A stretch of 64,000 bases of DNA from an uncultured Actinomycetes bacterium (lineage in GTDB: Bacteria > Actinomycetota > Thermoleophilia > UBA2241), in NCBI GenBank assembly GCA_963767005.1, contig CAVYCN010000002.1, forward strand, positions 192,001-256,000, given 5' to 3'. This document shows, piece by piece, positions 29,287 through 40,105 of the stretch. The notes beneath the pieces were generated by a model. It had not been told where the DNA came from. It made no database searches and was given only the letters and a program-made list of their open reading frames with translations. Within the stretch, counting starts at the first letter, position 1; the number at the start of each line of letters is the position of its first letter. A program made the position numbers and the translations under genes.

Positions 29287-30648
29287 ATGGCCGAACCGAC
29301 CAAGGTCCTCATCATGGGAGCCGCGGGCCGCGACTTCCACAACTTCAACTGCTACTTTCGCGACAACGAGCGCTACCGCGTCGTGGCCTTCACCGCCACC
29401 CAGATCCCCTACATCAACGACCGCAAGTACCCGGCCGAGCTCGCCGGAAAGCTCTATCCGGACGGCATCCCGATCCACGACGAGTCCGAGATGCCCGCGC
29501 TCGTCAAGCGCCACGGCGTCGAGCAGGTCGTCTTTGCCTACTCCGACGTGCGCTACGAGTACCTCATGCACCGCTCGGCCCTGGTCAACGCCCTGGGCTG
29601 CGACTTTCGCCTCATGGGCCCCGACCACACCATGGTCAAGTCGACCAAGCCGGTGATCGCCGTCTGCGCCGTGCGTACCGGCGCCGGCAAGAGCCAGACC
29701 ACCCGCAAGATCCAGACCATGCTGCGCGAGGCCGGCAAGAAGGTCGTGTCGATCCGTCACCCCATGCCCTACGGCGACCTCGTCAAGCAGCGCGTGCAGC
29801 GCTACGCCACGGTCGAGGACCTGGCGAAGTACGAGTGCACGATCGAGGAGATGGAAGAGTACGAGCCGCACGTCGTGGCCGGCAATGTGATCTACGCCGG
29901 CGTCGACTACGAGGCGATCGTGCGCGAGGCCGAAAAAGAGGCCGACGTCATTCTCTGGGACGGCGGCAACAACGACTACAGCTTCTACAAGGCCGACCTC
30001 TACATCACTATCGCCGACCCGCATCGCCCCGGCAACGGCCTCGTCTACTACCCCGGCGAGGTCAACCTGCGCCTGGCCGACGTCGTCGTGATGAACAAGA
30101 TCGACACCGCCGACAGGGCCGGCATCGCCGCCGAGCTCGACGCCGTGCGCTCGGTGAACCCGACCGCGCAGATCGTCATGGCCGCCTCGCCCGTCACGGT
30201 CGACAAGCCCGAGCTCGTCAGGGGCAAGCGCGTGCTCGTGGTCGAGGACGGCCCCACGCTCACCCACGGCGAGATGAAGTACGGCGCCGGCATGGTGGCC
30301 GCCCAGCAGCTCGGCGCCGCCGAGTACATCGACCCGCGGCCCTTCGCCACCGGCGAAATCAAGGCGACCTTCGAGAAGTACCCCGGGATCGGCACGCTGC
30401 TGCCGGCCATGGGCTACTCCGAGCAGCAGTTGAAGGACTTAGAGACGACGATCAACGCCTCGGGCGCCGACCTCGTCGTGATCGGCACGCCGATGGACCT
30501 GCGCCGCATCGTGAACATCAAGCTGCCGGCCGTGCAGGTGGGCTACGACCTGCAGGAGATCGGCAGTCCCACGCTCGCCGACGTGCTGCGCGAGCACGGT
30601 TTCCTTGGGGCCGAGCAGCCGCTGGCCGCCGCGCATCACGGCATCTGA
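29287..30648 (+). CDS. cDPGS-like P-loop ATPase; probable arginine synthetase ArcE type
   Basis: MGAAGRDFHNFN, AVRTGAGKSQT, RHPMPYG, WDGGNND, VEDGPTLTHG; sits between orr and OTCase. Confidence 0.75.
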   Translation: MAEPTKVLIMGAAGRDFHNFNCYFRDNERYRVVAFTATQIPYINDRKYPAELAGKLYPDGIPIHDESEMPALVKRHGVEQVVFAYSDVRYEYLMHRSALVNALGCDFRLMGPDHTMVKSTKPVIAVCAVRTGAGKSQTTRKIQTMLREAGKKVVSIRHPMPYGDLVKQRVQRYATVEDLAKYECTIEEMEEYEPHVVAGNVIYAGVDYEAIVREAEKEADVILWDGGNNDYSFYKADLYITIADPHRPGNGLVYYPGEVNLRLADVVVMNKIDTADRAGIAAELDAVRSVNPTAQIVMAASPVTVDKPELVRGKRVLVVEDGPTLTHGEMKYGAGMVAAQQLGAAEYIDPRPFATGEIKATFEKYPGIGTLLPAMGYSEQQLKDLETTINASGADLVVIGTPMDLRRIVNIKLPAVQVGYDLQEIGSPTLADVLREHGFLGAEQPLAAAHHGI

Positions 30649-30742
30649 TAGCATCGCCCGCACGCCGTTTCGTCGGGGGCGGGCCGCCGCAGGCGGCCCG
30701 CCCCCGCGGCGACCAGACCAAAAACGAGCCCAAGGAGGCCTC

Positions 30743-31702
30743 ATGAGCGCGTTGCAGGACCGCGTCACCGACCTGGGCCTCGCCGGCCGCGACTTCCTCA
30801 CGATCCACGAGTACAGCCCGGTCGAGATCGGCGCCCTGCTCGACCTGGCCGTCGAGCTCAAGGCGAGCAACAAGGCCGGGCGCGACGAGCCGCTGCTGGC
30901 CGGCAAGGCCGTCGGCATGATCTTCACCAAGACCTCGACCCGCACGCGCATCTCGTTCGAGGTCGGCATCCACCAGCTCGGCGGCCAGCCGCTGTTCCTG
31001 AACGCCGGCGACATCCAGCTTCGCGTCGGCGAGACCATAAAGGACACCGGCCACGTGCTGTCGCGCTACCTCGGCGGCATCATGATCCGCACGTTCGCTC
31101 ATGCCGACGTGGTCGACCTCGCGGCGAGCGCGGAGGTGCCGGTGATCAACGGCCTGACCGATGCGCACCATCCCTGCCAGGCGATGGCCGACGCGCTGAC
31201 GGTGAGGGAGCACTGCGGCGGCCTCGCGGGGCGCACCATCGTGTACTCGGGCGACGGCAACAACGTGGCGCACTCGCTGATCGAGGTGGGCGCCAAGACC
31301 GGCATGCGTGTCGTGGTCTGCACGCCCGACGATTACCGTCCCGACCCCACGATCGTCGCCCGGGCGCGCGCCGACGCCGCCGAGACGGGCGCCACGATCG
31401 AGCTCACGAGCGACCTGCGCGCGGCCGTGCGCGGCGCCGATGTGATCTACACCGACACCTTCACGAGCATGGGCCAGGAGGCCGAGCACGACGTGCGGCT
31501 GGCCGCCCTGTCGTCGTACCAGGTCAACGACGAGCTGCTCGCGCTGGCCGGGCCGCAGTGCCACGTCATGCACTGCCTGCCGGCCCACTGGGGCGAGGAG
31601 ATCACCGAGGCCGCGCTCTACAGCTCGCAGTCGGTGGTCTTCGACCAGGCCGAGAACCGCCTGCACGCCCAGAAGGCGATCATGGCGGCGCTGATGGTCT
31701 GA
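30743..31702 (+). CDS. argF: Ornithine carbamoyltransferase (possibly catabolic)
   Basis: STRTRISF, HPCQ, HCLP, DQAENRLH; AAGGAGG RBS. Confidence 0.92.
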   Translation: MSALQDRVTDLGLAGRDFLTIHEYSPVEIGALLDLAVELKASNKAGRDEPLLAGKAVGMIFTKTSTRTRISFEVGIHQLGGQPLFLNAGDIQLRVGETIKDTGHVLSRYLGGIMIRTFAHADVVDLAASAEVPVINGLTDAHHPCQAMADALTVREHCGGLAGRTIVYSGDGNNVAHSLIEVGAKTGMRVVVCTPDDYRPDPTIVARARADAAETGATIELTSDLRAAVRGADVIYTDTFTSMGQEAEHDVRLAALSSYQVNDELLALAGPQCHVMHCLPAHWGEEITEAALYSSQSVVFDQAENRLHAQKAIMAALMV

Positions 31703-31789: not shown

Positions 31790-33304
31790 TCAGCGCCAGC
31801 TCGTGAACCAGGCGAGGTGCGCGTAGTAGGCGTAGGGGGCCGCCTGCGAGACGATGAACGGCAGCCAGGCCACGGCCAGGCCGACCACCGCGCCCACGTA
31901 GACCCAGGCGGCGAGGGCCGGCAGGCGCATGCCGGCGGCGGCACGATTGCGGCCGGCGAGGGTGGCCGCCGCGACGACGGCGACAAGGACGGCGAGCGCC
32001 GCCAGGCGCAGCGGGGCGCCGCCGCCGGCGGCGAGGGCGACGAGTACGGCGCCGGCCAGGGCGCACAGGGCGGCGCGGCCGCGCGGCAGCGGCCGGTCGG
32101 CTACGAGGCGCGCGAGCGCGCCGGCCACCAGGATCGCGAGGAACGGGATCGCCGGCGTGAGGTAGTAGATGTAGGACTGGCGGCTCGTGGCCAGCCAGGG
32201 CAGGTAGAGGCAGGCGGCGAGCAGCGCGGGGGCGGTGCCGGCGAGGTCGCGCCGGCGGGCCGCGAGCCAGACCACGGCGACGAGGGCGACGATCGAACCC
32301 CAAAGCAGCAGCGGGTTGCCGATCGCGACGAGACCGACGACGTCGCCGTGCGGCGCGAGCGCCCAGCGATACCAGATCGGCGTCGCGTCGAAGATCCAGG
32401 TGAGCGGTCGCGAGGCCATGGTCGAGACGCCCTGCACGTTCCAGTTGAAGGTCGCCATGTAGCGCTGCAGGTGGAGCCACTGGCCGAGCGTGTGGCCGCT
32501 TGCGAAGTAGTCGGCATAGCTTGCCACGTAGACGGCGAGCGGCAGGACGACGAGGCACGCGAGGGCGGCCGCGGCGCGGCCTGCCGCGCCGCCGGCGACT
32601 TCGCCTGCCGGCCGCGCCCGCCGCTCGCGCACCACGGCCACGGCCACGATGCCGGCCGCGGCCACGAGGGCGAACAGGCCGGACCATTTGCTGGCGACCG
32701 CGCAGCCGCCGGCGAGTCCGGTGAGCACGAGCCAGCGCGCCGGACGTCTTGGGCTGCCCGACTGCACGAAGCGCAGAGCGCAGTAGATGCAGACGGCCGA
32801 CCAGAGGGCGACGAAGGGGTCGAGCACGCCGATGCGCGACTCGGTCATCAGCATAGTGTCGGCCGCGGCGAGCACGAGGGCCACGAAGGCCCAGCGCGGC
32901 GCCAGGCCGAGGCGGCGGGCGAGCGGGTAGACGAGCGCGATCAGCAGCGTCCCGGCGATGGCCGCCGGCACGCGCCAGCCCCAGGGGCCGTCGCCCAGGA
33001 CCTCGACGCCGGCGGCGATCGCCAGCGTGCCGAGCTCCGGGTGGGCGAGCGAGCGGGCCGCGCCCGGCTTCCAGGGCGCCGATCCGCGCGGTCCGAGGCC
33101 GCCGTGCACGATCACGCCGGCGTCGTGTGCGTAGTAGTGCTCGTCGAAGACGTAGGTGCGGTAGACGCCGAGGTTCACAAAACGCACGGCGGCCGAGAGG
33201 GCGACGACGACGAGCACGCCCGCGAGCAGGGCGCGCGCCGACGGCGCGCGCCCGCGCGGCGCGGCCGCCGGCGTCAGGCGGACGGGGGCCGCGGGCTCGG
33301 TCAT
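31790..33304 (-). CDS. Protein O-mannosyltransferase (GT-C/PMT family), paralog 2
   Basis: VFDEHYY, HPELG, GWR, KWSG, GNPLLLWG; ATG overlaps the stop of paralog 1. Confidence 0.85.
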   Translation of the reverse strand: MTEPAAPVRLTPAAAPRGRAPSARALLAGVLVVVALSAAVRFVNLGVYRTYVFDEHYYAHDAGVIVHGGLGPRGSAPWKPGAARSLAHPELGTLAIAAGVEVLGDGPWGWRVPAAIAGTLLIALVYPLARRLGLAPRWAFVALVLAAADTMLMTESRIGVLDPFVALWSAVCIYCALRFVQSGSPRRPARWLVLTGLAGGCAVASKWSGLFALVAAAGIVAVAVVRERRARPAGEVAGGAAGRAAAALACLVVLPLAVYVASYADYFASGHTLGQWLHLQRYMATFNWNVQGVSTMASRPLTWIFDATPIWYRWALAPHGDVVGLVAIGNPLLLWGSIVALVAVVWLAARRRDLAGTAPALLAACLYLPWLATSRQSYIYYLTPAIPFLAILVAGALARLVADRPLPRGRAALCALAGAVLVALAAGGGAPLRLAALAVLVAVVAAATLAGRNRAAAGMRLPALAAWVYVGAVVGLAVAWLPFIVSQAAPYAYYAHLAWFTSWR

Positions 33305-35022
33305 CAGATCCAGTTGCGGAACCACATGAGGTGGTAGAAGTGGGGGATCGCGATCGGCAGGTCGATGAGGATCGGCAGGAACGCGAGGCAGACGCCGGTG
33401 ACGGCGCCGGCGTAGACCCACGTGACGTAGGGCCACAGGCGTTTGGCCGGCGCCCAGAAGAACAGGCCGAGGGTGACGAGCACCGCCACGGTGATGCCGA
33501 CGGCCAGGGTCACGCGGGCGAGGTCGACCGAGAGGATGGCGGGGTCGCGCCAGAACAGCCAGTCGGCGGCCACGCCGATCTGGTACCAGAACAGCGCGAC
33601 GACCACGCAGGCGGCCGCGTAGCAGGCGGCCGCGAGCTGCCAGCGCGGCACGCGGCTCGCGGCGAGTTCGCGAAGCATGGCGGCCACGGCGAGGGCCATG
33701 AACGGCGCGACCGGCGTCATGTAGTACATGAACGACGTGCGGGTCGTGCGCAGCCAGGGCAGGTAGAGCAGGGCTACCATGATCGGCAGTACGGCGAGCT
33801 CGCGGTCGCGGCGGCGCACGGCGAGCACGACGAGGCCGACCAGGGCGGCGATGGAACCCCACCAGAGCAGCGGGTTGCCGATCGAGATGATGCCGTGCAC
33901 GCGCCCACCGATCTGCTCGTAGTAGTACCAGACGGGGCGGTAGTCGAAGATCCAGGTGTAGGCGCGCGAGGCGTAGGTGTGGGTGGCGTGGAGGCTCTCG
34001 TTGAACCACCACATCTCCTGCTGGAGCTGCCACCACTGCGAGAGCGTGTGGTGGCCGACGGCGAAGTAGTCGACGTAGCTGGCGAAGTAGAGGCCGGCTG
34101 GCAGGGCGACCAGCGACAGCGACGGCAGGCGCACCTCGGGCACGCCGACCTCGAGCGTCACGACGCCGGCGGCCGCGAGGGCGATCGCGAGCGAGACGTG
34201 CGGCAGGAGCCCGGGAGCGCGGATGCCGAGCGCGGTGAACGCGCCGCCGGCGACCACCAGGCCCACACCGGCGGCGAGCCAGGGCCAGCGCCGCCAGGCC
34301 GCGTCGGGCCGGCGCCGGTGCAGCAGGATGTAGGCGGCCGCCGCGGCGATCGCGAAGGCGCCCGACCACTTGGTGCCGAGCGCGAGGCCGCCGGCGAGGC
34401 CGCACAGCACGAGCCAGCGGGTGCGGTGCCCGCTTTGCACATAACGCAGCGCCAGGTAGACGCAGAGCACCGACCAGAAGGCGACGAAGATGTCGAGCGT
34501 GGCGATGCGCGACTGCACGATGCCGAGAAAGTCGGAGGCGGCCAGCACGAGGCCGAGCAGCGCCCAGACGGGCGGCAAGCCGAGGCGTCGGCCGATGGGG
34601 TAGACGAGGCAGAGGAGCAGCGTACCGACGATCGCCGCGACGATGCGCCAGCCGAAGGAGTGGTAGCCGAAGGCGGCCTCGCCGGCGGCGATCGCGTACT
34701 TGCCGTACTCGGGGTGCGGCCACGAGATCTCCTTGCCGGGCTCCCAGGGGTAGACGGCGGTGCCGGCGAGCGCGCCCTGCAGGATCGCGTGGGCGTCCTT
34801 GGCGTAGTAGACCTCGTCGAAGACGAGCGTGGCCGGTCGCTGGAGCTCGTACAGGCGCACCGTCGCCGACGCGATGAGGACGAGCAGGACCAGGACGACG
34901 ATCACGCCGGGGGCGCGGTCGGGACGGCGCGGCCCGTCTTCGGGAGGAGGGTCGGCGACCCGGTCGGCGACCTTTCGGGGACGCCTGGTGGGCCTGCTGC
35001 GCGGCTCTCGGGTCTTGACCAT
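33304..35022 (-). CDS. Protein O-mannosyltransferase (GT-C/PMT family), paralog 1
   Basis: VFDEVYY, HPEYGK, GWR, SRIATLD, KWSG, GNPLLWWG; TATAAT 7 nt before ATG 35022 suggests leaderless start. Confidence 0.87.
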   Translation of the reverse strand: MVKTREPRSRPTRRPRKVADRVADPPPEDGPRRPDRAPGVIVVLVLLVLIASATVRLYELQRPATLVFDEVYYAKDAHAILQGALAGTAVYPWEPGKEISWPHPEYGKYAIAAGEAAFGYHSFGWRIVAAIVGTLLLCLVYPIGRRLGLPPVWALLGLVLAASDFLGIVQSRIATLDIFVAFWSVLCVYLALRYVQSGHRTRWLVLCGLAGGLALGTKWSGAFAIAAAAAYILLHRRRPDAAWRRWPWLAAGVGLVVAGGAFTALGIRAPGLLPHVSLAIALAAAGVVTLEVGVPEVRLPSLSLVALPAGLYFASYVDYFAVGHHTLSQWWQLQQEMWWFNESLHATHTYASRAYTWIFDYRPVWYYYEQIGGRVHGIISIGNPLLWWGSIAALVGLVVLAVRRRDRELAVLPIMVALLYLPWLRTTRTSFMYYMTPVAPFMALAVAAMLRELAASRVPRWQLAAACYAAACVVVALFWYQIGVAADWLFWRDPAILSVDLARVTLAVGITVAVLVTLGLFFWAPAKRLWPYVTWVYAGAVTGVCLAFLPILIDLPIAIPHFYHLMWFRNWI

Positions 35023-35033
35023 TCGCGACATTA

Positions 35034-35089
35034 TAGTGCCGGCGAGCGACTTCGTCGTCGCCGCTCAGGCAAGCGTGACTGCGTCGGGC
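35034..35089 (+). repeat. Dispersed ~55-bp intergenic repeat, copy 1
   Basis: tagtgccggcgagcgacttcgtcgtcgccgctcaggcaagcgtgactgcgtcgggc; similar to 53824 and 57221. Confidence 0.7.
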
Positions 35090-35098
35090 GCGGTCGGC

Positions 35099-35695
35099 TC
35101 AGGCGCCGTCGGCCCGTTCGCGGGCCGGCTGTCGCGGTCCCGCTGCGGGCGCCGCCAGGGCGGCGCCGGCGCCGCGCATGCCGGCCGCGATCAGCCAGGC
35201 CAGGCCGACGGCGATCAGCAGGTCGCCCGGACTGAAGACGTTGGCGAGCGGCACGGCGTGAGGCAGGGCGAAGACGTCGCCGAGGAAGCCGAGATGCGTG
35301 GCCGCGCCGGCGACCTCGGAGTTGTTGTGGTGCCCGGTCGCCTCGACCAGGCCGGCGAGGCGCAGGGCGGCCCGGCTGGCCGGCATGTAGCCGCCGTTCA
35401 CGACGATCGTCACGGCGTTGCTGATGACCCCGGCGCCAAAGCAGACGACTGGCCGGCGGCGGATGTTCGCGGCCACGAAGGTCAGCAGGAGCGCATACGA
35501 GGCGAGGTGGAGCGCGATGATCGCGGCCCCCGGGAGGCGTTCGCCGAGCGGCGAGAAGGCGACGAGCTGCAGGGCCAGGGCGAGCACGACGAGCGCTGCG
35601 AGGCGCAGCGAGAGCCGCTCGAGGTTGCCGAGCGAGCCGCCGAGCAGCGTGCCGGCGAGCAGGCCGCCGACGACGGCTACGACGAGGACGAACAC
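35099..35695 (-). CDS. DUF5317-like membrane protein; putative signal-peptidase-II-like aspartic peptidase
   Basis: GTG start overlaps the HD-GYP stop; several TM helices; GVISN, NGGYMP, LGD and VFSPGDLLIAVG motifs. Confidence 0.72.
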   Translation of the reverse strand: MFVLVVAVVGGLLAGTLLGGSLGNLERLSLRLAALVVLALALQLVAFSPLGERLPGAAIIALHLASYALLLTFVAANIRRRPVVCFGAGVISNAVTIVVNGGYMPASRAALRLAGLVEATGHHNNSEVAGAATHLGFLGDVFALPHAVPLANVFSPGDLLIAVGLAWLIAAGMRGAGAALAAPAAGPRQPARERADGA

Positions 35696-36996
35696 GACTC
35701 GCGCGGGGTCGAAGGCAGCGCCACGAGACGGGGCTTGGCCGGGTTGCGCCAGCAGCCGATGAAGGCGTCGACGAGATCGGGGTCGAACTGGCGCCCGGCG
35801 CCGCGGCGCAGCTCGGCGAGCGCGATCTCCGACGACAGGGCCGCGCGGTACGGACGATCGGACGTCATGGCGTCGTAGGCGTCGGCGACGGTGATGATGC
35901 GCGCCCCGAGCGGGATCTGCGTGCCGGCCAGGCCGTCGGGGTAGCCACGCCCGTCCCAGCGCTCGTGATGGTGGCGGATGTAGTCGCGCCCCTTGCGGTA
36001 CATGCTGAACTGTCCGGCGAGCTCGCTGCCGTCGGCCGGATGGGCGATGATCGCGCGGCGCTCCTCTTCGGTCAGCGACGCCTGCTTGTAGAGGATGCGG
36101 TTGTCGGTCGCGATCTTGCCGAGGTCGTGCACACGCGCGGCCGAGATGACGAGGTCGATCTCTTTGCGCGGCAGGTCGAGGGCGCGGGCGATCTCGCCGG
36201 CGTACTCGGCCACCCGCAGGGAGTGGGCGTAGGTGTACTCGTCGCGCTTGTCGACGGTGTCGGCGAGCAGGGCGAGGGCGTGGTCGGTCTCGCTCTGCAG
36301 GTTGGCGTAGAGCTTGAACCCCGTGTAGATGACGAGGATCAGGAACGGGAAGTAGAGGATGTTCCAGGGGCTGTCCTGGTAGGCGAAGGCCAGCAGGGCG
36401 CCGAGCGGTGTCATCGACACGTAGAGGATGCCCATCTCGCGGAACGACGCCGTCCATTCGTGGAAGAAGGAGCGGCCCGAGAGCGTGATGATGCCGGCCA
36501 CCAGGGTGTCGTTCACGAGCAGGAAGATGGCCGCCGAGACGACGATCGCGGGCGCGTCGCGGCGCAGATCGACGGGGCCGGACACGGCGAGCAGCCGGTA
36601 GACCACGGCGGCGAGCGCCGAGGTGAGGCAGACCTGGCTGCTGTTGAACAGGACGCGGCTCCAGTGGCGCCGCGAGAGGACGAGGTCGCTGCCCACGACG
36701 CCGCCCATGGCGACGACGCTGGCGAAGGCCGGTCCGTAGAGGATGGTGGCCGCGAAGGCCACGGTGAGTGACAGCGACATGCTGCCCTCGAAGCTCGACG
36801 CGACCGCCCAGCGTTCGCTCGCGATGGCCGCGCCGAGGAGCACGACGAGGTCGGTCCAGTGGTGGCTGGGGAACGTGTGGAAGGTGGCGGCCAGGAGGAG
36901 GGCCGCGCCGGCGGTGACGCCGCCGATGTACGTTGCCACCGCAGGCGACACCCGGGTCGGGGTGGTGGGTGCCGCCTGCGGTGGCTGCTCCGTCAT
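35677..36996 (-). CDS. Membrane-integral sensor HD-GYP cyclic-dinucleotide phosphodiesterase
   Basis: About 7 N-terminal TM helices; HSLRVA, HDLGK, HHERWDGRGYPDGL, ADAYDAMTSDRPYR. Confidence 0.9.
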   Translation of the reverse strand: MTEQPPQAAPTTPTRVSPAVATYIGGVTAGAALLLAATFHTFPSHHWTDLVVLLGAAIASERWAVASSFEGSMSLSLTVAFAATILYGPAFASVVAMGGVVGSDLVLSRRHWSRVLFNSSQVCLTSALAAVVYRLLAVSGPVDLRRDAPAIVVSAAIFLLVNDTLVAGIITLSGRSFFHEWTASFREMGILYVSMTPLGALLAFAYQDSPWNILYFPFLILVIYTGFKLYANLQSETDHALALLADTVDKRDEYTYAHSLRVAEYAGEIARALDLPRKEIDLVISAARVHDLGKIATDNRILYKQASLTEEERRAIIAHPADGSELAGQFSMYRKGRDYIRHHHERWDGRGYPDGLAGTQIPLGARIITVADAYDAMTSDRPYRAALSSEIALAELRRGAGRQFDPDLVDAFIGCWRNPAKPRLVALPSTPRESCSSSS

Positions 36997-37054
36997 GATT
37001 CAGATGTCAGGCTGGCTTGCTGCCTGCGCCGGATCGACGCGTGCTACGCGCGCG

Positions 37055-37147
37055 TCAGTCCCACTTGAGCCAGGCGCCGCTCGTGACGGCGAGCGCCACG
37101 ACCAGGGCCAGCGTGATGACGACTTTGTTCGTGAGGATGCTCTTCAT
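37055..37147 (-). CDS. 30-aa signal-peptide-like precursor MKSILTNKVVITLALVVALAVTSGAWLKWD
   Basis: Translated by hand; RBS GGGAGAGGGAG; GC-rich third codon positions; paralogous to 37194-37289. Confidence 0.8.
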   Translation of the reverse strand: MKSILTNKVVITLALVVALAVTSGAWLKWD

Positions 37148-37193
37148 GTTGGATCTCCCTCTCCCAAGGTGACGAGTCGCGTGCGCCCGAGTG

Positions 37194-37289
37194 TCAGCTC
37201 CACTTCTTGAAGGCGCCGCTCGCGAGCGCGAGTGACACGATCAGCGCCACCATCGCGAGCTTAGGGTAGGTGCCTTTCAGCAACCTCAT
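37194..37289 (-). CDS. 31-aa signal-peptide-like precursor MRLLKGTYPKLAMVALIVSLALASGAFKKWS
   Basis: RBS AAGGGAGG; basic N-region, hydrophobic core, shared SGA[FW]xKW[SD] tail. Confidence 0.8.
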   Translation of the reverse strand: MRLLKGTYPKLAMVALIVSLALASGAFKKWS

Positions 37290-37385
37290 GAGCCCTCCCT
37301 TCGTGCGTCGGTCCCCACCAGACCGGTCGGGCCGTCCGTGACGTTGCCAGGCGTCGTGCGGACGGTCATGTCCGAGTGCTTCTGG

Positions 37386-37413
37386 ATATCGGCACCGGCT
37401 TTGCCGTTCTTTA
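37386..37413 (-). promoter_or_regulatory. Sigma-28 (SigD/FliA/WhiG-type) promoter for the peptide operon
   Basis: Minus strand TAAA-N16-GCCGATAT, about 95 nt upstream of the first peptide ATG. Confidence 0.72.
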
Positions 37414-37543
37414 ACTTGGAACGAGGCTCTCGTGAAAGGAACAGGCGTGCGTCGGCGCTGGCGGCCCGGCACGTCGTGTGATATCACTCTCACGGCTCGA
37501 GCGTCCGCCGCGCCGCCGGTCCGGCCGGCGGCCTCTTCCGAGC

Positions 37544-37557
37544 CGAACGTCTGTTCG
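37544..37557. promoter_or_regulatory. LexA (Cheo-box) like site
   Basis: CGAACGTCTGTTCG, same form as the lexA operators at 42477 and 42505. Confidence 0.5.
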
Positions 37558-37612
37558 TCGAGTGCACCCGAGCCGCGCCCGGGCGCGACAGGACCAAGGA
37601 GGGAACCGCAAC

Positions 37613-38251
37613 ATGACCGACCAACAGCACGAGGTCCTCGCCACGGTGAGGGACAAGATCGCCAACCCGGCGCCGCTCGGGCTCATGGCGTTCGGCATGA
37701 CCACCGTGCTGCTCAACCTGAGCAACGCCGGCCTCTTTCCGCTGAACAGCGTGGTCCTCGCCATGGGCGTCTTCTACGGCGGCGCGGCGCAAGTGATCGC
37801 CGCCCTGCAGGAGTACAAGAAGAACAACGTCTTCGGGGCGACCGCCTTCGCTTCGTACGGCTTCTTCTGGATGAGCTTCGTCGCGATCTTCGCCTTCCCG
37901 AAGTGGATCGGCATCGAGGCCGCGAGCACGACGGCGCTCGGCTGGTACCTGCTCGCCTGGGGCGTCTTCACCGGCCTCATGTTCGTCGCCACGCTGCGCA
38001 TCAACGTGAGCCTGCAGGTGGTGTTCGGCAGCCTGACGATCCTGTACGTGCTGCTCACGCTCCATTTCTGGACCGGCAACGCGATGCTCGGCAAGGTCGC
38101 CGGCTGGGAGGGCGTCTTCGTGGGCCTGTCGGCCATGTACGGCGCGATCGCCCAGATCTGGAACGAGGTCTACGGCGAGGTCGTGCTGCCGCTCGGCCAG
38201 GTCGAGCGGCCGCGCGCCGTCAAGGTGATGCCGTCGACGAGCGGCAAGTAG
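37613..38251 (+). CDS. satP: Acetate/succinate uptake channel (GPR1/FUN34/YaaH family)
   Basis: ANPAPLGL, FYGG..Q, SYGFFW; about 6 TM helices. Confidence 0.88.
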   Translation: MTDQQHEVLATVRDKIANPAPLGLMAFGMTTVLLNLSNAGLFPLNSVVLAMGVFYGGAAQVIAALQEYKKNNVFGATAFASYGFFWMSFVAIFAFPKWIGIEAASTTALGWYLLAWGVFTGLMFVATLRINVSLQVVFGSLTILYVLLTLHFWTGNAMLGKVAGWEGVFVGLSAMYGAIAQIWNEVYGEVVLPLGQVERPRAVKVMPSTSGK

Positions 38252-38272
38252 CCGGCTCCGTCACGCCGCCTC

Positions 38273-38320
38273 GACGGGGGCGGGCCGCTCCGCACGGAGC
38301 GGCCCGCCCCCGTCCCTTTT
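38273..38320 (+). terminator. Rho-independent terminator
   Basis: gacgggggcgggccgctccg..cggagcggcccgcccccgtc followed by T-tract. Confidence 0.75.
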
Positions 38321-38437
38321 CCGCGCTCGACCAGACGGCCGCCCTTGCCGGCGGCCAGGTATATCCTAGGTAGAGAGAGTGAACGCGCCGCGCCCGGTCG
38401 CGGGCGCGGCGTTCGTGCACGAGACGTGGAGGTCGCC

Positions 38438-40105
38438 ATGAGCGTCGTCGGATCGGATCGGGTCGTACGCGCGCCGCGGGGCACGCAGCTGTCGTGCCGC
38501 GGCTGGCAGCAGGAAGCCGCCCTGCGCATGCTCATGAACAACCTCGACCCCGAGGTCGCCGAGCGGCCTCAGGACCTCGTGGTCTACGGTGGCGCCGGCA
38601 AGGCGGCGCGCAGCTGGGAGGCCTTCGACGCGATCGTCGCCACCCTGCGCCGCCTGGGCGACGACGAGACGCTGCTCGTGCAGTCGGGCAAGCCGGTCGG
38701 CGTGTTCGAGACGCACCCCTGGGCGCCGCGCGTGCTGATCGCCAACGCCAACCTCGTGGGCGACTGGGCGAACTGGGACGAGTTCCGTCGCCTCGACGCT
38801 CTCGGCCTCACCATGTACGGCCAGATGACGGCCGGCTCGTGGATCTACATCGGCACGCAGGGCATCCTGCAGGGCACCTACCAGACCTTCGCCGCGGCCG
38901 GCGAGAAACACTATGGCTCAGACCTGGCAGGTCGCCTCGTGCTCACGGCCGGCCTGGGCGGCATGGGCGGCGCTCAGCCCCTGGCCGTCACCATGGCCGG
39001 CGGCGTGGCACTGTGCGTCGAGGTCGATCCCGTGCGCATCAAGCGGCGCCTCGAGACCGGCTACGTCGACCAGTCGACCGAATCCCTGGACGAAGCGCTG
39101 CGCTGGGCGGCGGCCGCCGCCAATGCCAGGCAGTCGCTCTCGATCGCCCTGCTGGGCAACGCCGCCGACGTCTACCCCGAGCTCGTGCGACGCGGCGTCG
39201 TGCCCGACCTCGTGACCGACCAGACCTCGGCGCACGACACGCTCAACGGCTACATCCCGAACGGCATGTCCTACGACGAGGCCCTCGCGCTGCGCGCGAG
39301 CGACCCGGGCGAGTACGTCAAGCGGGCCGTCGCGGCGATCGTCGAGCACGTGCAGGCGATGGTGGCGCTGCAGAGGGCGGGCTCAAACGTCTTCGACTAC
39401 GGCAACAACATCCGCGGCGAGGCTAAGGCGGCCGGCTTCGCCGACGCCTTCGCCTTCCAGGGCTTCGTGCCGCTCTACATCAGGCCGCTCTTCTGCCGCG
39501 GCAACGGTCCCTTCCGCTGGGCGGCGCTGTCGGGCGATCCGGCCGACATCACGCGCACCGACCGCGCCGTGCTCGAGACCTTCCCTGACAACGAGATGGT
39601 GACCCGCTGGATCCGCATGGCCGCCGAGAAGGTCCATTTTCAGGGGCTGCCCTGCCGCATCTGCTGGCTCGAGTACGGCGAGCGGGCGAAGATGGGCAAG
39701 GTCTTCAACGAGCTCGTGCGCTCGGGCGAGGTCAAGGCGCCGATCGTGATCGGCCGCGACCACCTCGACTCGGGCTCGGTGGCCTCGCCCTATCGCGAGA
39801 CCGAGGCCATGCGCGACGGCTCCGACGCGATCGCCGACTGGCCCATTCTGAACGCGCTCCTGAACACGGCCGCCGGCGCCTCGTGGGTGAGCTTCCACCA
39901 CGGCGGCGGCGTGGGCATCGGCAAGAGCCTGCACGCCGGCATGGTGGTCGTCGCCGACGGCACCGACATGATGGCCGAGCGCCTGCGGCGCGTGCTCACC
40001 ACCGACCCCGGCACGGGCGTGATGCGCCACGCCGACGCGGGCTATCCCGAGGCGCTCGAGGCCGCGCGTGAGTACGGCATCGACCTGCCGATGGCGGGGG
40101 CGTGA
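38438..40105 (+). CDS. hutU: Urocanate hydratase
   Basis: [43 protein letters not shown]. Confidence 0.96.

Follow-up and report, generated by a model that had tools for sequence, protein, structure and literature searches.

DUF5317, a membrane protein family with an LspA-like pair of aspartates, is co-inherited with signal-peptide-like micro-proteins and a membrane c-di-GMP enzyme

The window analysed here, a stretch of 64,000 nucleotides with a G+C content of 72% from an uncultured Actinomycetes bacterium, carries an operon on its minus strand in the order pepA (37194..37289, 31 aa), pepB (37055..37147, 30 aa), a MASE9 and HD-GYP gene (35677..36996, 439 aa), and a DUF5317 gene (35099..35695, 198 aa). 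Both tiny genes have their own purine-rich ribosome-binding stretch, and ORF analysis showed that the DUF5317 gene starts with GTG at 35695 and overlaps the 3' end of the upstream MASE9-HD-GYP gene by 19 nt. Two tandem PMT-family genes (33304-35031 and about 31790-33340, both on the minus strand), which encode proteins like dolichyl-phosphate-mannose protein mannosyltransferase (PMT, PMT_2, PMT_4TMC), are located directly downstream of DUF5317. According to tblastn, the first of them is found downstream of DUF5317 in two loci of the same genus only (L005 and L006), in a set of loci that reach 1.5 kb past DUF5317. A gene for a GPR1/FUN34/YaaH-family membrane protein (37478-38251, plus strand) lies divergently upstream of the peptide operon, and genes for urocanase (38345-40105, plus strand) and ornithine/aspartate carbamoyltransferase (30605-31702, plus strand) are also present. 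An Rfam scan of positions 34000-39000 gave no match at E <= 0.1, c-di-GMP riboswitch included.

The initial annotation had assigned the last gene of the operon to DUF5317 from its motifs, and this assignment was confirmed by search, in which the window protein (P0001) matched Pfam PF17248 with an E value of 2.4e-27 and 96.2 bits (cut-off 25) over profile positions 2-150 of 151. The same cut-off was passed by 46 of 46 aligned relatives, and the window gene is, judged by these profile matches, a true DUF5317 member. No NCBIfam model matched P0001, and a search of the ESM Atlas with DUF5317 returned no usable match. In our literature search, neither DUF5317 nor PF17248 was named in any paper, and the family is regarded here as unstudied. 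Exhaustive phmmer retrieved 2,827 cluster representatives (50% identity) at E <= 0.001, and the source names given for homologues indicate Thermoleophilia. Among control genomes, those of Thermotoga maritima and Thermus thermophilus each gave a score for PF17248.

Three motifs are found in the window protein, including GVISN (residues 89-93, 35417-35431, minus strand), LGD (residues 138-140, 35276-35284, minus strand), and VFSPGDLLIAVG (residues 153-164, 35204-35239, minus strand). Asp140 of L-G-D (codon GAC, 35276..35278, minus strand) and Asp158 of F-S-x-G-D-x-x-I-x-x-G (codon GAC, 35222..35224, minus strand) are separated by 18 residues, and no other Asp occurs before the C-terminal tail; the rechecked coordinates of the motifs and of both Asp codons agree with the initial annotation, which had also proposed to check whether the two residues are conserved in the family. 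When the best 150 of the 2,827 representatives were aligned to the family HMM, D140 and D158 were each present in 149 of 149 aligned rows. Several further positions of this alignment are near-invariant, including N77 (149/150), G89 (150/150), N93 (150/150), N100 (149/150), G102 (149/150), P105 (150/150), P145 (148/149), P149 (148/148), S155 (149/149), and G157 (149/149). The invariant N93, N100, S155, and G157 form an outer-leaflet cluster that accompanies the Asp pair. The outer end of helix 4 carries a near-invariant block, G89-x3-N93-x6-N100-G-G-x-M-P105 (35381..35431, minus strand), that is characteristic of DUF5317 and has no equivalent in LspA. The same conservation picture was obtained from alignment A1 (29 sequences) and from alignment A3 (46 sequences from several phyla, whose loci were fished with two peptide patterns, one of them including D158).

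Two DUF5317 relatives, P0037 (252 aa) and P0039 (256 aa), possess a C-terminal extension that is predicted to be cytoplasmic, and the extension of P0037 matches C2H2 zinc-finger models (zf-C2H2_4, E 0.0018). The DUF5317 match was split into two pieces at L042 4001-4517, where they lie in different frames, and at G008:C62:7857-8280, and the split could stem from a frameshift, decay of the gene copy, or an error in sequencing.

The initial annotation had also presumed that non-lipidated precursors are encoded beside DUF5317. Such genes exist and must be pepA and pepB, which are conserved, co-inherited, and carry a lipobox-like Gly/Ala-Ala site. In both products, a basic N-terminus leads into a single hydrophobic helix and then a tail in which a small residue is followed by Ala-x-x-Lys/Arg-Trp; the tail is A-S-G-A-F-K-K-W-S in pepA (ending in LALASGAFKKWS) and T-S-G-A-W-L-K-W-D in pepB (ending in LAVTSGAWLKWD). 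By its residues, this tail resembles a lipobox in which Ala replaces Cys. No family for pepA or pepB was found in Pfam or NCBIfam. Both are real genes, and both occur in seven of seven loci of close relatives. A peptide profile built from 27 seeds chosen by regular expression was run with a threshold of 12 bits and detected 37 tails, distributed over 29 of the 80 DUF5317 loci and several phyla; the 27 seeds match their own profile by construction, and about ten of the tails are new. All 37 tails are on the DUF5317 strand, and the reversed-sequence control gave 0 of 14,578 tails. A looser filter, applied with no control, added the variant tails AAANGKW, AAASMKW, LADGKW, and LAAPFRW in seven further loci, suggesting a common core of [GA]-A-x-x-[KR]-W. 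In alignment A4, Ala is invariant, Gly, Lys, and Trp are each present in at least 90% of rows, and no Cys occurs at the +1 place; since Gly and Trp were demanded by the regular expression, only the conservation of Ala and Lys is independent.

In a comparison of 16 A-type copies within the genus, the three codons of S-G-A showed 63, 41, and 80 synonymous pair differences and no non-synonymous ones, while the helix part of the same copies showed 531 synonymous and 697 non-synonymous differences. On this codon evidence, S-G-A is constant beside a freely varying helix, as in a signal peptide whose site of putative cleavage or recognition is fixed. The [GA]-A site also fits the -3/-1 rule of signal peptidase I. 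Up to seven peptide matches were found per genome, as against one or two DUF5317 genes, and the extra pairs of A- and B-type peptides lie away from any DUF5317 or HD-GYP gene; several peptide pairs per single DUF5317 would be expected of one enzyme with several substrates. A second pair in the same genome lies outside the window (G000:C2:654560-654842, plus strand; locus L094 2060-2343), and its B copy has an insertion in the tail. This pair is just before a 403-aa ORF and not beside DUF5317 or HD-GYP, and more such pairs are present in relatives (L095-L104). The 403-aa ORF has no Pfam match, and tblastn found none beside the extra pairs in ten stretches from relatives.

The 439-aa product of the gene between the peptides and DUF5317 matches HD_5 (E 1.7e-34, 119.4 bits) and MASE9 (34.8 bits, cut-off 24.3), and its translation contains HHERWDGRGYP, an intact HHExxDGxGYP motif. 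By these matches, it is a MASE9 membrane sensor joined to an HD-GYP c-di-GMP phosphodiesterase, exactly the architecture of T. maritima TM1467 and S. venezuelae HdgA, which are the MASE9-HD-GYP examples of Galperin and Chou (10.1101/2021.11.05.467447). The MASE9 domain was proposed to bind a ligand within the membrane, and the passages of that preprint on MASE9 name no ligand, partner protein, or small peptide (10.1101/2021.11.05.467447).

The neighbours of DUF5317 were classed in 80 loci taken from genome contigs. HD-GYP lies immediately upstream on the same strand in 36 of the 80 loci, farther upstream in 4/80, and downstream in 2/80; GGDEF lies upstream on the same strand in 11/80 and elsewhere in the flank in 6/80, and neither HD-GYP nor GGDEF is present within 4 kb in 21/80. 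In the subset of 59 loci whose upstream DNA extends for 2,200 nt or more, the peptide was detected in 17 of 22 with an adjacent HD-GYP gene (variant tails in four more), 4 of 4 with HD-GYP farther upstream, the single locus with HD-GYP downstream (1/1), 3 of 11 with GGDEF upstream, 0 of 6 with other GGDEF arrangements, and 1 of 15 with no c-di-GMP gene nearby. These counts indicate that the peptide tracks the phosphodiesterase at least as closely as it tracks DUF5317. In two Bacillota loci, the peptide is located between DUF5317 and HD-GYP. LspA adjoins DUF5317 in none of the 80 loci, and an MFS gene does so in seven. In one of the loci with GGDEF upstream, from an Actinomycetales genome (L047 1811-3940, plus strand), a 709-aa protein that ends 10 nt before DUF5317 consists of a 260-aa N-terminal part with no Pfam match followed by GGDEF-EAL, suggesting that the partner enzyme can be of EAL type instead of HD-GYP.

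DUF5317 is inherited together with the signal-peptide-like micro-proteins and with a c-di-GMP enzyme of the membrane. It is present in 18 of 41 related genomes, and the peptide profile was detected in the same 18 of 18. Among the DUF5317-less genomes, the peptide was found in 1 of 23, as a marginal match (E 0.008) inside a 500-aa open frame. Both states, with DUF5317 and peptides or with neither, occur within each of three genera; because related genomes are not independent, the agreement across the 41 genomes is no statistical test. According to the initial annotation, DUF5317 would be dedicated to the neighbouring precursors. The co-inheritance in 18/18 genomes speaks for this part of the claim, and the tie of the peptides to HD-GYP, which is at least as close, speaks against it. 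DUF5317 is also found in fusion proteins. Of 55 long representatives, 21 are DUF5317-MFS_1 fusions, as are most of 44 matches classed as longer; P0395 has the order DUF5317-MFS-PAS-GGDEF, and P0251 (1,177 aa) has DUF5317-MFS-GGDEF-HD-GYP. The HD_5-DUF5317 fragments P0055 and P0309 may represent miscalled overlapping genes.

LspA, the signal peptidase II (MEROPS A8, Pfam PF01252; structures 6RYO and 6RYP), was taken as the reference for comparison. A genuine LspA (P0122, G000:C2:349494-349886) is encoded elsewhere in the genome and matches PF01252 with an E value of 8.6e-26 and TIGR00077 with a score of 76.6 (cut-off 73.95, passed), indicating that DUF5317 is not the housekeeping enzyme. The LspA motifs given in the initial annotation are sound, as they are seen in P0122 (GGAAGNLVDR...YVLDY...FNVGDVAIAVG) and the S. 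aureus LspA dyad, Asp118 and Asp136, is likewise spaced by 18 residues and lies near the outer membrane surface (PMC6952399). Alignment of DUF5317 (A1 or A3) with 33 LspA sequences (A2) by hhalign gave a probability of 20-22% and a P value of about 1e-3, pairing D140 with the Asp of V-x-D-F, the first catalytic Asp of LspA, and D158 with the Asp of F-N-x-A-D, the second. The real score was 29.25, whereas 150 shuffled LspA profiles, with columns permuted inside 12-column windows, had a mean of 14.3 (sd 3.2) and a maximum of 25.3, so that 0 of 150 reached the real score, and reversed profiles scored 16.4 and 15.2.

An untargeted scan of the 46 A3 members against 24,736 Pfam models (E up to 10) was consistent with this alignment. 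Peptidase_A8 was matched by four of the 46 members (E 0.0026, 0.097, 0.11, and 0.25); every other family except DUF5317 itself had at most two matching members. The Peptidase_A8 matches are co-linear, spanning helices 4 to 5 and profile positions of about 58-140 of 142, and all fall below the cut-off, with the best score being 18.4 bits against 25. The LspA HMM (A2) scored at least 8 bits on 36 of 307 DUF5317 proteins and on no reversed one, always at the stretch of F-N-x-A-D and the last helix, and the reciprocal search gave at least 5 bits for 30 of 121 LspA proteins against 0 reversed. However, the window protein itself had no A8 match in Pfam even at E 10, and pairwise BLASTP with the genome's LspA was not significant, with the best segment pairing FSPGDLLIAVGLA with FNVGDVAIAVGAA (E 0.13 for a single comparison). 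Searches of all PDB sequences with phmmer of P0001 and with the HMM of A1 found no LspA at E up to 10. The global hhalign alignment had a probability of 0.85%, and extended or global alignment gained nothing past the last ~50 columns. By these profile comparisons, the likeness to LspA is real but local, confined to the last ~50 residues. Membership of P0001 in family A8 was considered and rejected; the PF01252 and TIGR00077 cut-offs were failed, most of the conserved residues are missing, and the helix count is different. Either convergence or a very distant shared ancestry of the last helix pair may lie behind the likeness.

AlphaFold2 with alignment A3 produced a model of DUF5317 with a mean pLDDT of 91.6 and a pTM of 0.84. 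The model has five transmembrane helices (2-17, 33-46, 56-76, 81-99, and 156-174) and a 55-residue loop (100-155) that contains a short helix and short strands; D140 is placed in a short strand of this loop, and the last helix has D158 in its first turn. A loop charge count found the short loops (18-32, 77-80, and 175 onward) to be Arg-rich, from which the long loop and both Asp are predicted to lie outside. Helix order and loop charges together suggest an outward-facing Asp pair, as in LspA. When the model was compared with 350,542 PDB chains by Foldseek, no chain passed the threshold of E 0.001 (lowest E 2.2), and the best 50 of 154 matches did not include LspA. A fold shared by DUF5317 and LspA is not established by these searches.

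Feature by feature, the two families are alike in the active-site region and different elsewhere. In both, two invariant Asp about 18 residues apart lie at the outer membrane face, as predicted for DUF5317, and both are small polytopic membrane proteins. The first Asp follows L/V-x-D in a strand, in a local setting like that of Asp118; the second belongs to F-[NS]-x-[AG]-D-x-x-I-x-x-G and is placed where the last helix begins, as is Asp136 in S. aureus LspA (PMC6952399). The presumed substrates are also alike, with a basic N-terminus followed by a single helix and by small residues that precede the site. In contrast, S. aureus LspA has four helices and a beta-cradle, and DUF5317 has five helices and lacks the GNxxDR block, the N-x-G of the beta-cradle, and the Asp of helix 1. 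The other 12 conserved residues of S. aureus LspA are D21, K25, N52, G54, G102, N106, D109, R110, V116, F132, N133, and A135 (PMC6952399), and like residues are found in DUF5317 only at F132 (F154, 122/149), A135 (G157), and V116 (L138); the position of N133 is an invariant Ser. The partner peptides differ from prolipoproteins in carrying Ala at the place of the lipidated Cys and only 5-8 residues after the site. A literature search for remote LspA homologues gave nothing relevant among the matches listed. The initial annotation had described DUF5317 as a divergent LspA-like peptidase, and this description holds in part: the Asp pair aligns with that of LspA (P about 1e-3, above 150 of 150 shuffles), A8 is the sole recurrent foreign Pfam match, and the Asp residues are predicted to face outward, but most of the 14 conserved residues of LspA have no counterpart.

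The LspA-like Asp layout, together with inheritance alongside signal-peptide-like genes and a c-di-GMP-degrading enzyme, makes DUF5317 a likely candidate for a new peptide-cutting membrane enzyme. We infer, with a probability of roughly 0.4, that DUF5317 is a dedicated intramembrane aspartic peptidase that cuts the co-encoded one-helix peptides of about 30 residues at their small-residue/Ala site and thereby feeds or resets the MASE9 sensor. In such a mechanism, the last helices of DUF5317 would receive the peptide helix from the side, as LspA receives a signal peptide, and the [GA]-A stretch, in extended form, would lie at the outer face of the membrane with D140 on one side and D158 on the other. 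A cut at the [GA]-Ala bond would then free or remove the A-x-x-K-W tail, and the activity of the adjacent MASE9 sensor enzyme would be set by this release or removal. In a broader version, which we consider unlikely, DUF5317 would found a new family of intramembrane aspartic peptidases, either distantly derived from LspA or convergent with it, that matures lipobox-like micro-precursors with Cys changed to Ala into exported A-x-x-K-W hexapeptides sensed by MASE9-type enzymes, forming a peptide-to-c-di-GMP circuit across Actinomycetota, Chloroflexota, Bipolaricaulota, Thermotogota, Bacillota, and others.

Several observations argue against a peptidase. The likeness to LspA spans about 50 residues, with the global alignment at 0.85% and P0001 lacking an A8 match; the peptide is tied more tightly to HD-GYP than to DUF5317; the [GA]-A site would also suit ordinary signal peptidase I; and the tail is conserved across phyla, unlike that of a fast-evolving pheromone. 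The invariant Lys/Arg of the tail and the Asp residues of DUF5317 could form a binding pair, and the frequent MFS fusion (21/55 long representatives) is not predicted by a peptidase model.

The main alternative, possible but on the doubtful side, builds on such a binding pair. DUF5317 would be a non-catalytic membrane partner whose Asp140 and Asp158 bind the invariant Lys/Arg of an uncut A-x-x-K-W tail, and together with the peptides it would serve as the input device, a co-receptor or adaptor, of the MASE9-type enzyme. This would account for a trio of peptide, membrane c-di-GMP enzyme, and DUF5317 kept across phyla, for a peptide that immediately precedes the sensor enzyme, and for a tail whose Lys and Trp are conserved across phyla instead of diversifying; the fusions of P0395 and P0251 are arranged as in sensor modules, and no enzyme relative of the fold was found. 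However, if the invariant Asp pair were a binding site, its LspA-like spacing and flanking residues, together with a profile match that falls on exactly the catalytic segment, would make a strange coincidence. The invariant small-residue/Ala pair of the peptide also resembles a scissile site, and no c-di-GMP gene lies within 4 kb in 21 of 80 DUF5317 loci. Neither the peptidase nor the co-receptor model accounts well for the MFS fusions or for the large number of DUF5317 genes that stand alone.

It is quite unlikely, in our estimate, that the likeness to LspA is a short chance or convergent motif with no functional meaning, with DUF5317 having a role unrelated to the peptides and being linked to them through their shared linkage to HD-GYP. 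The similarity is indeed short, all scores are below family cut-offs, the LspA comparison was chosen after the motif had been noticed, and the peptides track HD-GYP and include extra pairs far from any DUF5317. On the other side, Peptidase_A8 was the only recurrent foreign family in an all-Pfam scan that was not targeted at it, the real scores exceeded every shuffled and reversed control, and across 41 genomes the peptides are present in all 18 that have DUF5317 and absent from 22 of the 23 that lack it, with both states in three genera. A transport or ion-handling accessory, in which polar residues would line a path used with a fused or neighbouring MFS protein and the peptides would be processed, if at all, by signal peptidase I or another protease, is very unlikely: it draws on the DUF5317-MFS_1 fusions, on conserved polar residues spread along the bundle from its inner end (N77) to its outer one (N100, D140, D158), and on a site suited to signal peptidase I, but most family members, including that of the window, have no MFS part, MFS adjoins in only 7/80 loci, no transporter gave an outstanding fold match, and the phyletic coupling to the peptides would be left unexplained.

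The small peptides can be compared with the pheromone precursors of Firmicutes. The precursors of Phr, PapR, NprX, SHP, and ComS/XIP are signal-peptide-like, 20-45 residues long, and active through their C-terminal 5-8 residues. The products of pepA and pepB are similarly short, their C-terminal 5-8 residues would be the active part, and the tail of pepB is Trp-rich like XIP. Unlike these pheromones, however, the pepA/pepB tail is conserved across phyla, its neighbour is a membrane c-di-GMP enzyme and not a cytoplasmic RRNPP regulator, and no Opp-type importer was seen in the operon. The binding-partner alternative would resemble the modulation of PhoQ by small membrane proteins such as MgrB. 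Like pepA and pepB, MgrB and SafA are tiny one-helix proteins that are encoded beside or act on a membrane sensor, PhoQ in both cases; they differ in needing no third partner with an Asp pair and in having no conserved cleavage-like site.

DUF5317 comprises at least 2,827 clusters at 50% identity, and its conserved combination with a MASE9 enzyme and a 30-residue peptide that has a fixed cleavage-like site, in which the membrane protein contributes the LspA-like Asp pair, provides a handle, testable by mutation, on what MASE-type sensor domains sense. If the preferred reading of DUF5317 as a peptide-cutting enzyme is true, the family would be the second in bacteria to perform intramembrane proteolysis of the aspartic signal-peptidase type, and it would open a new route from small peptides to second-messenger control.
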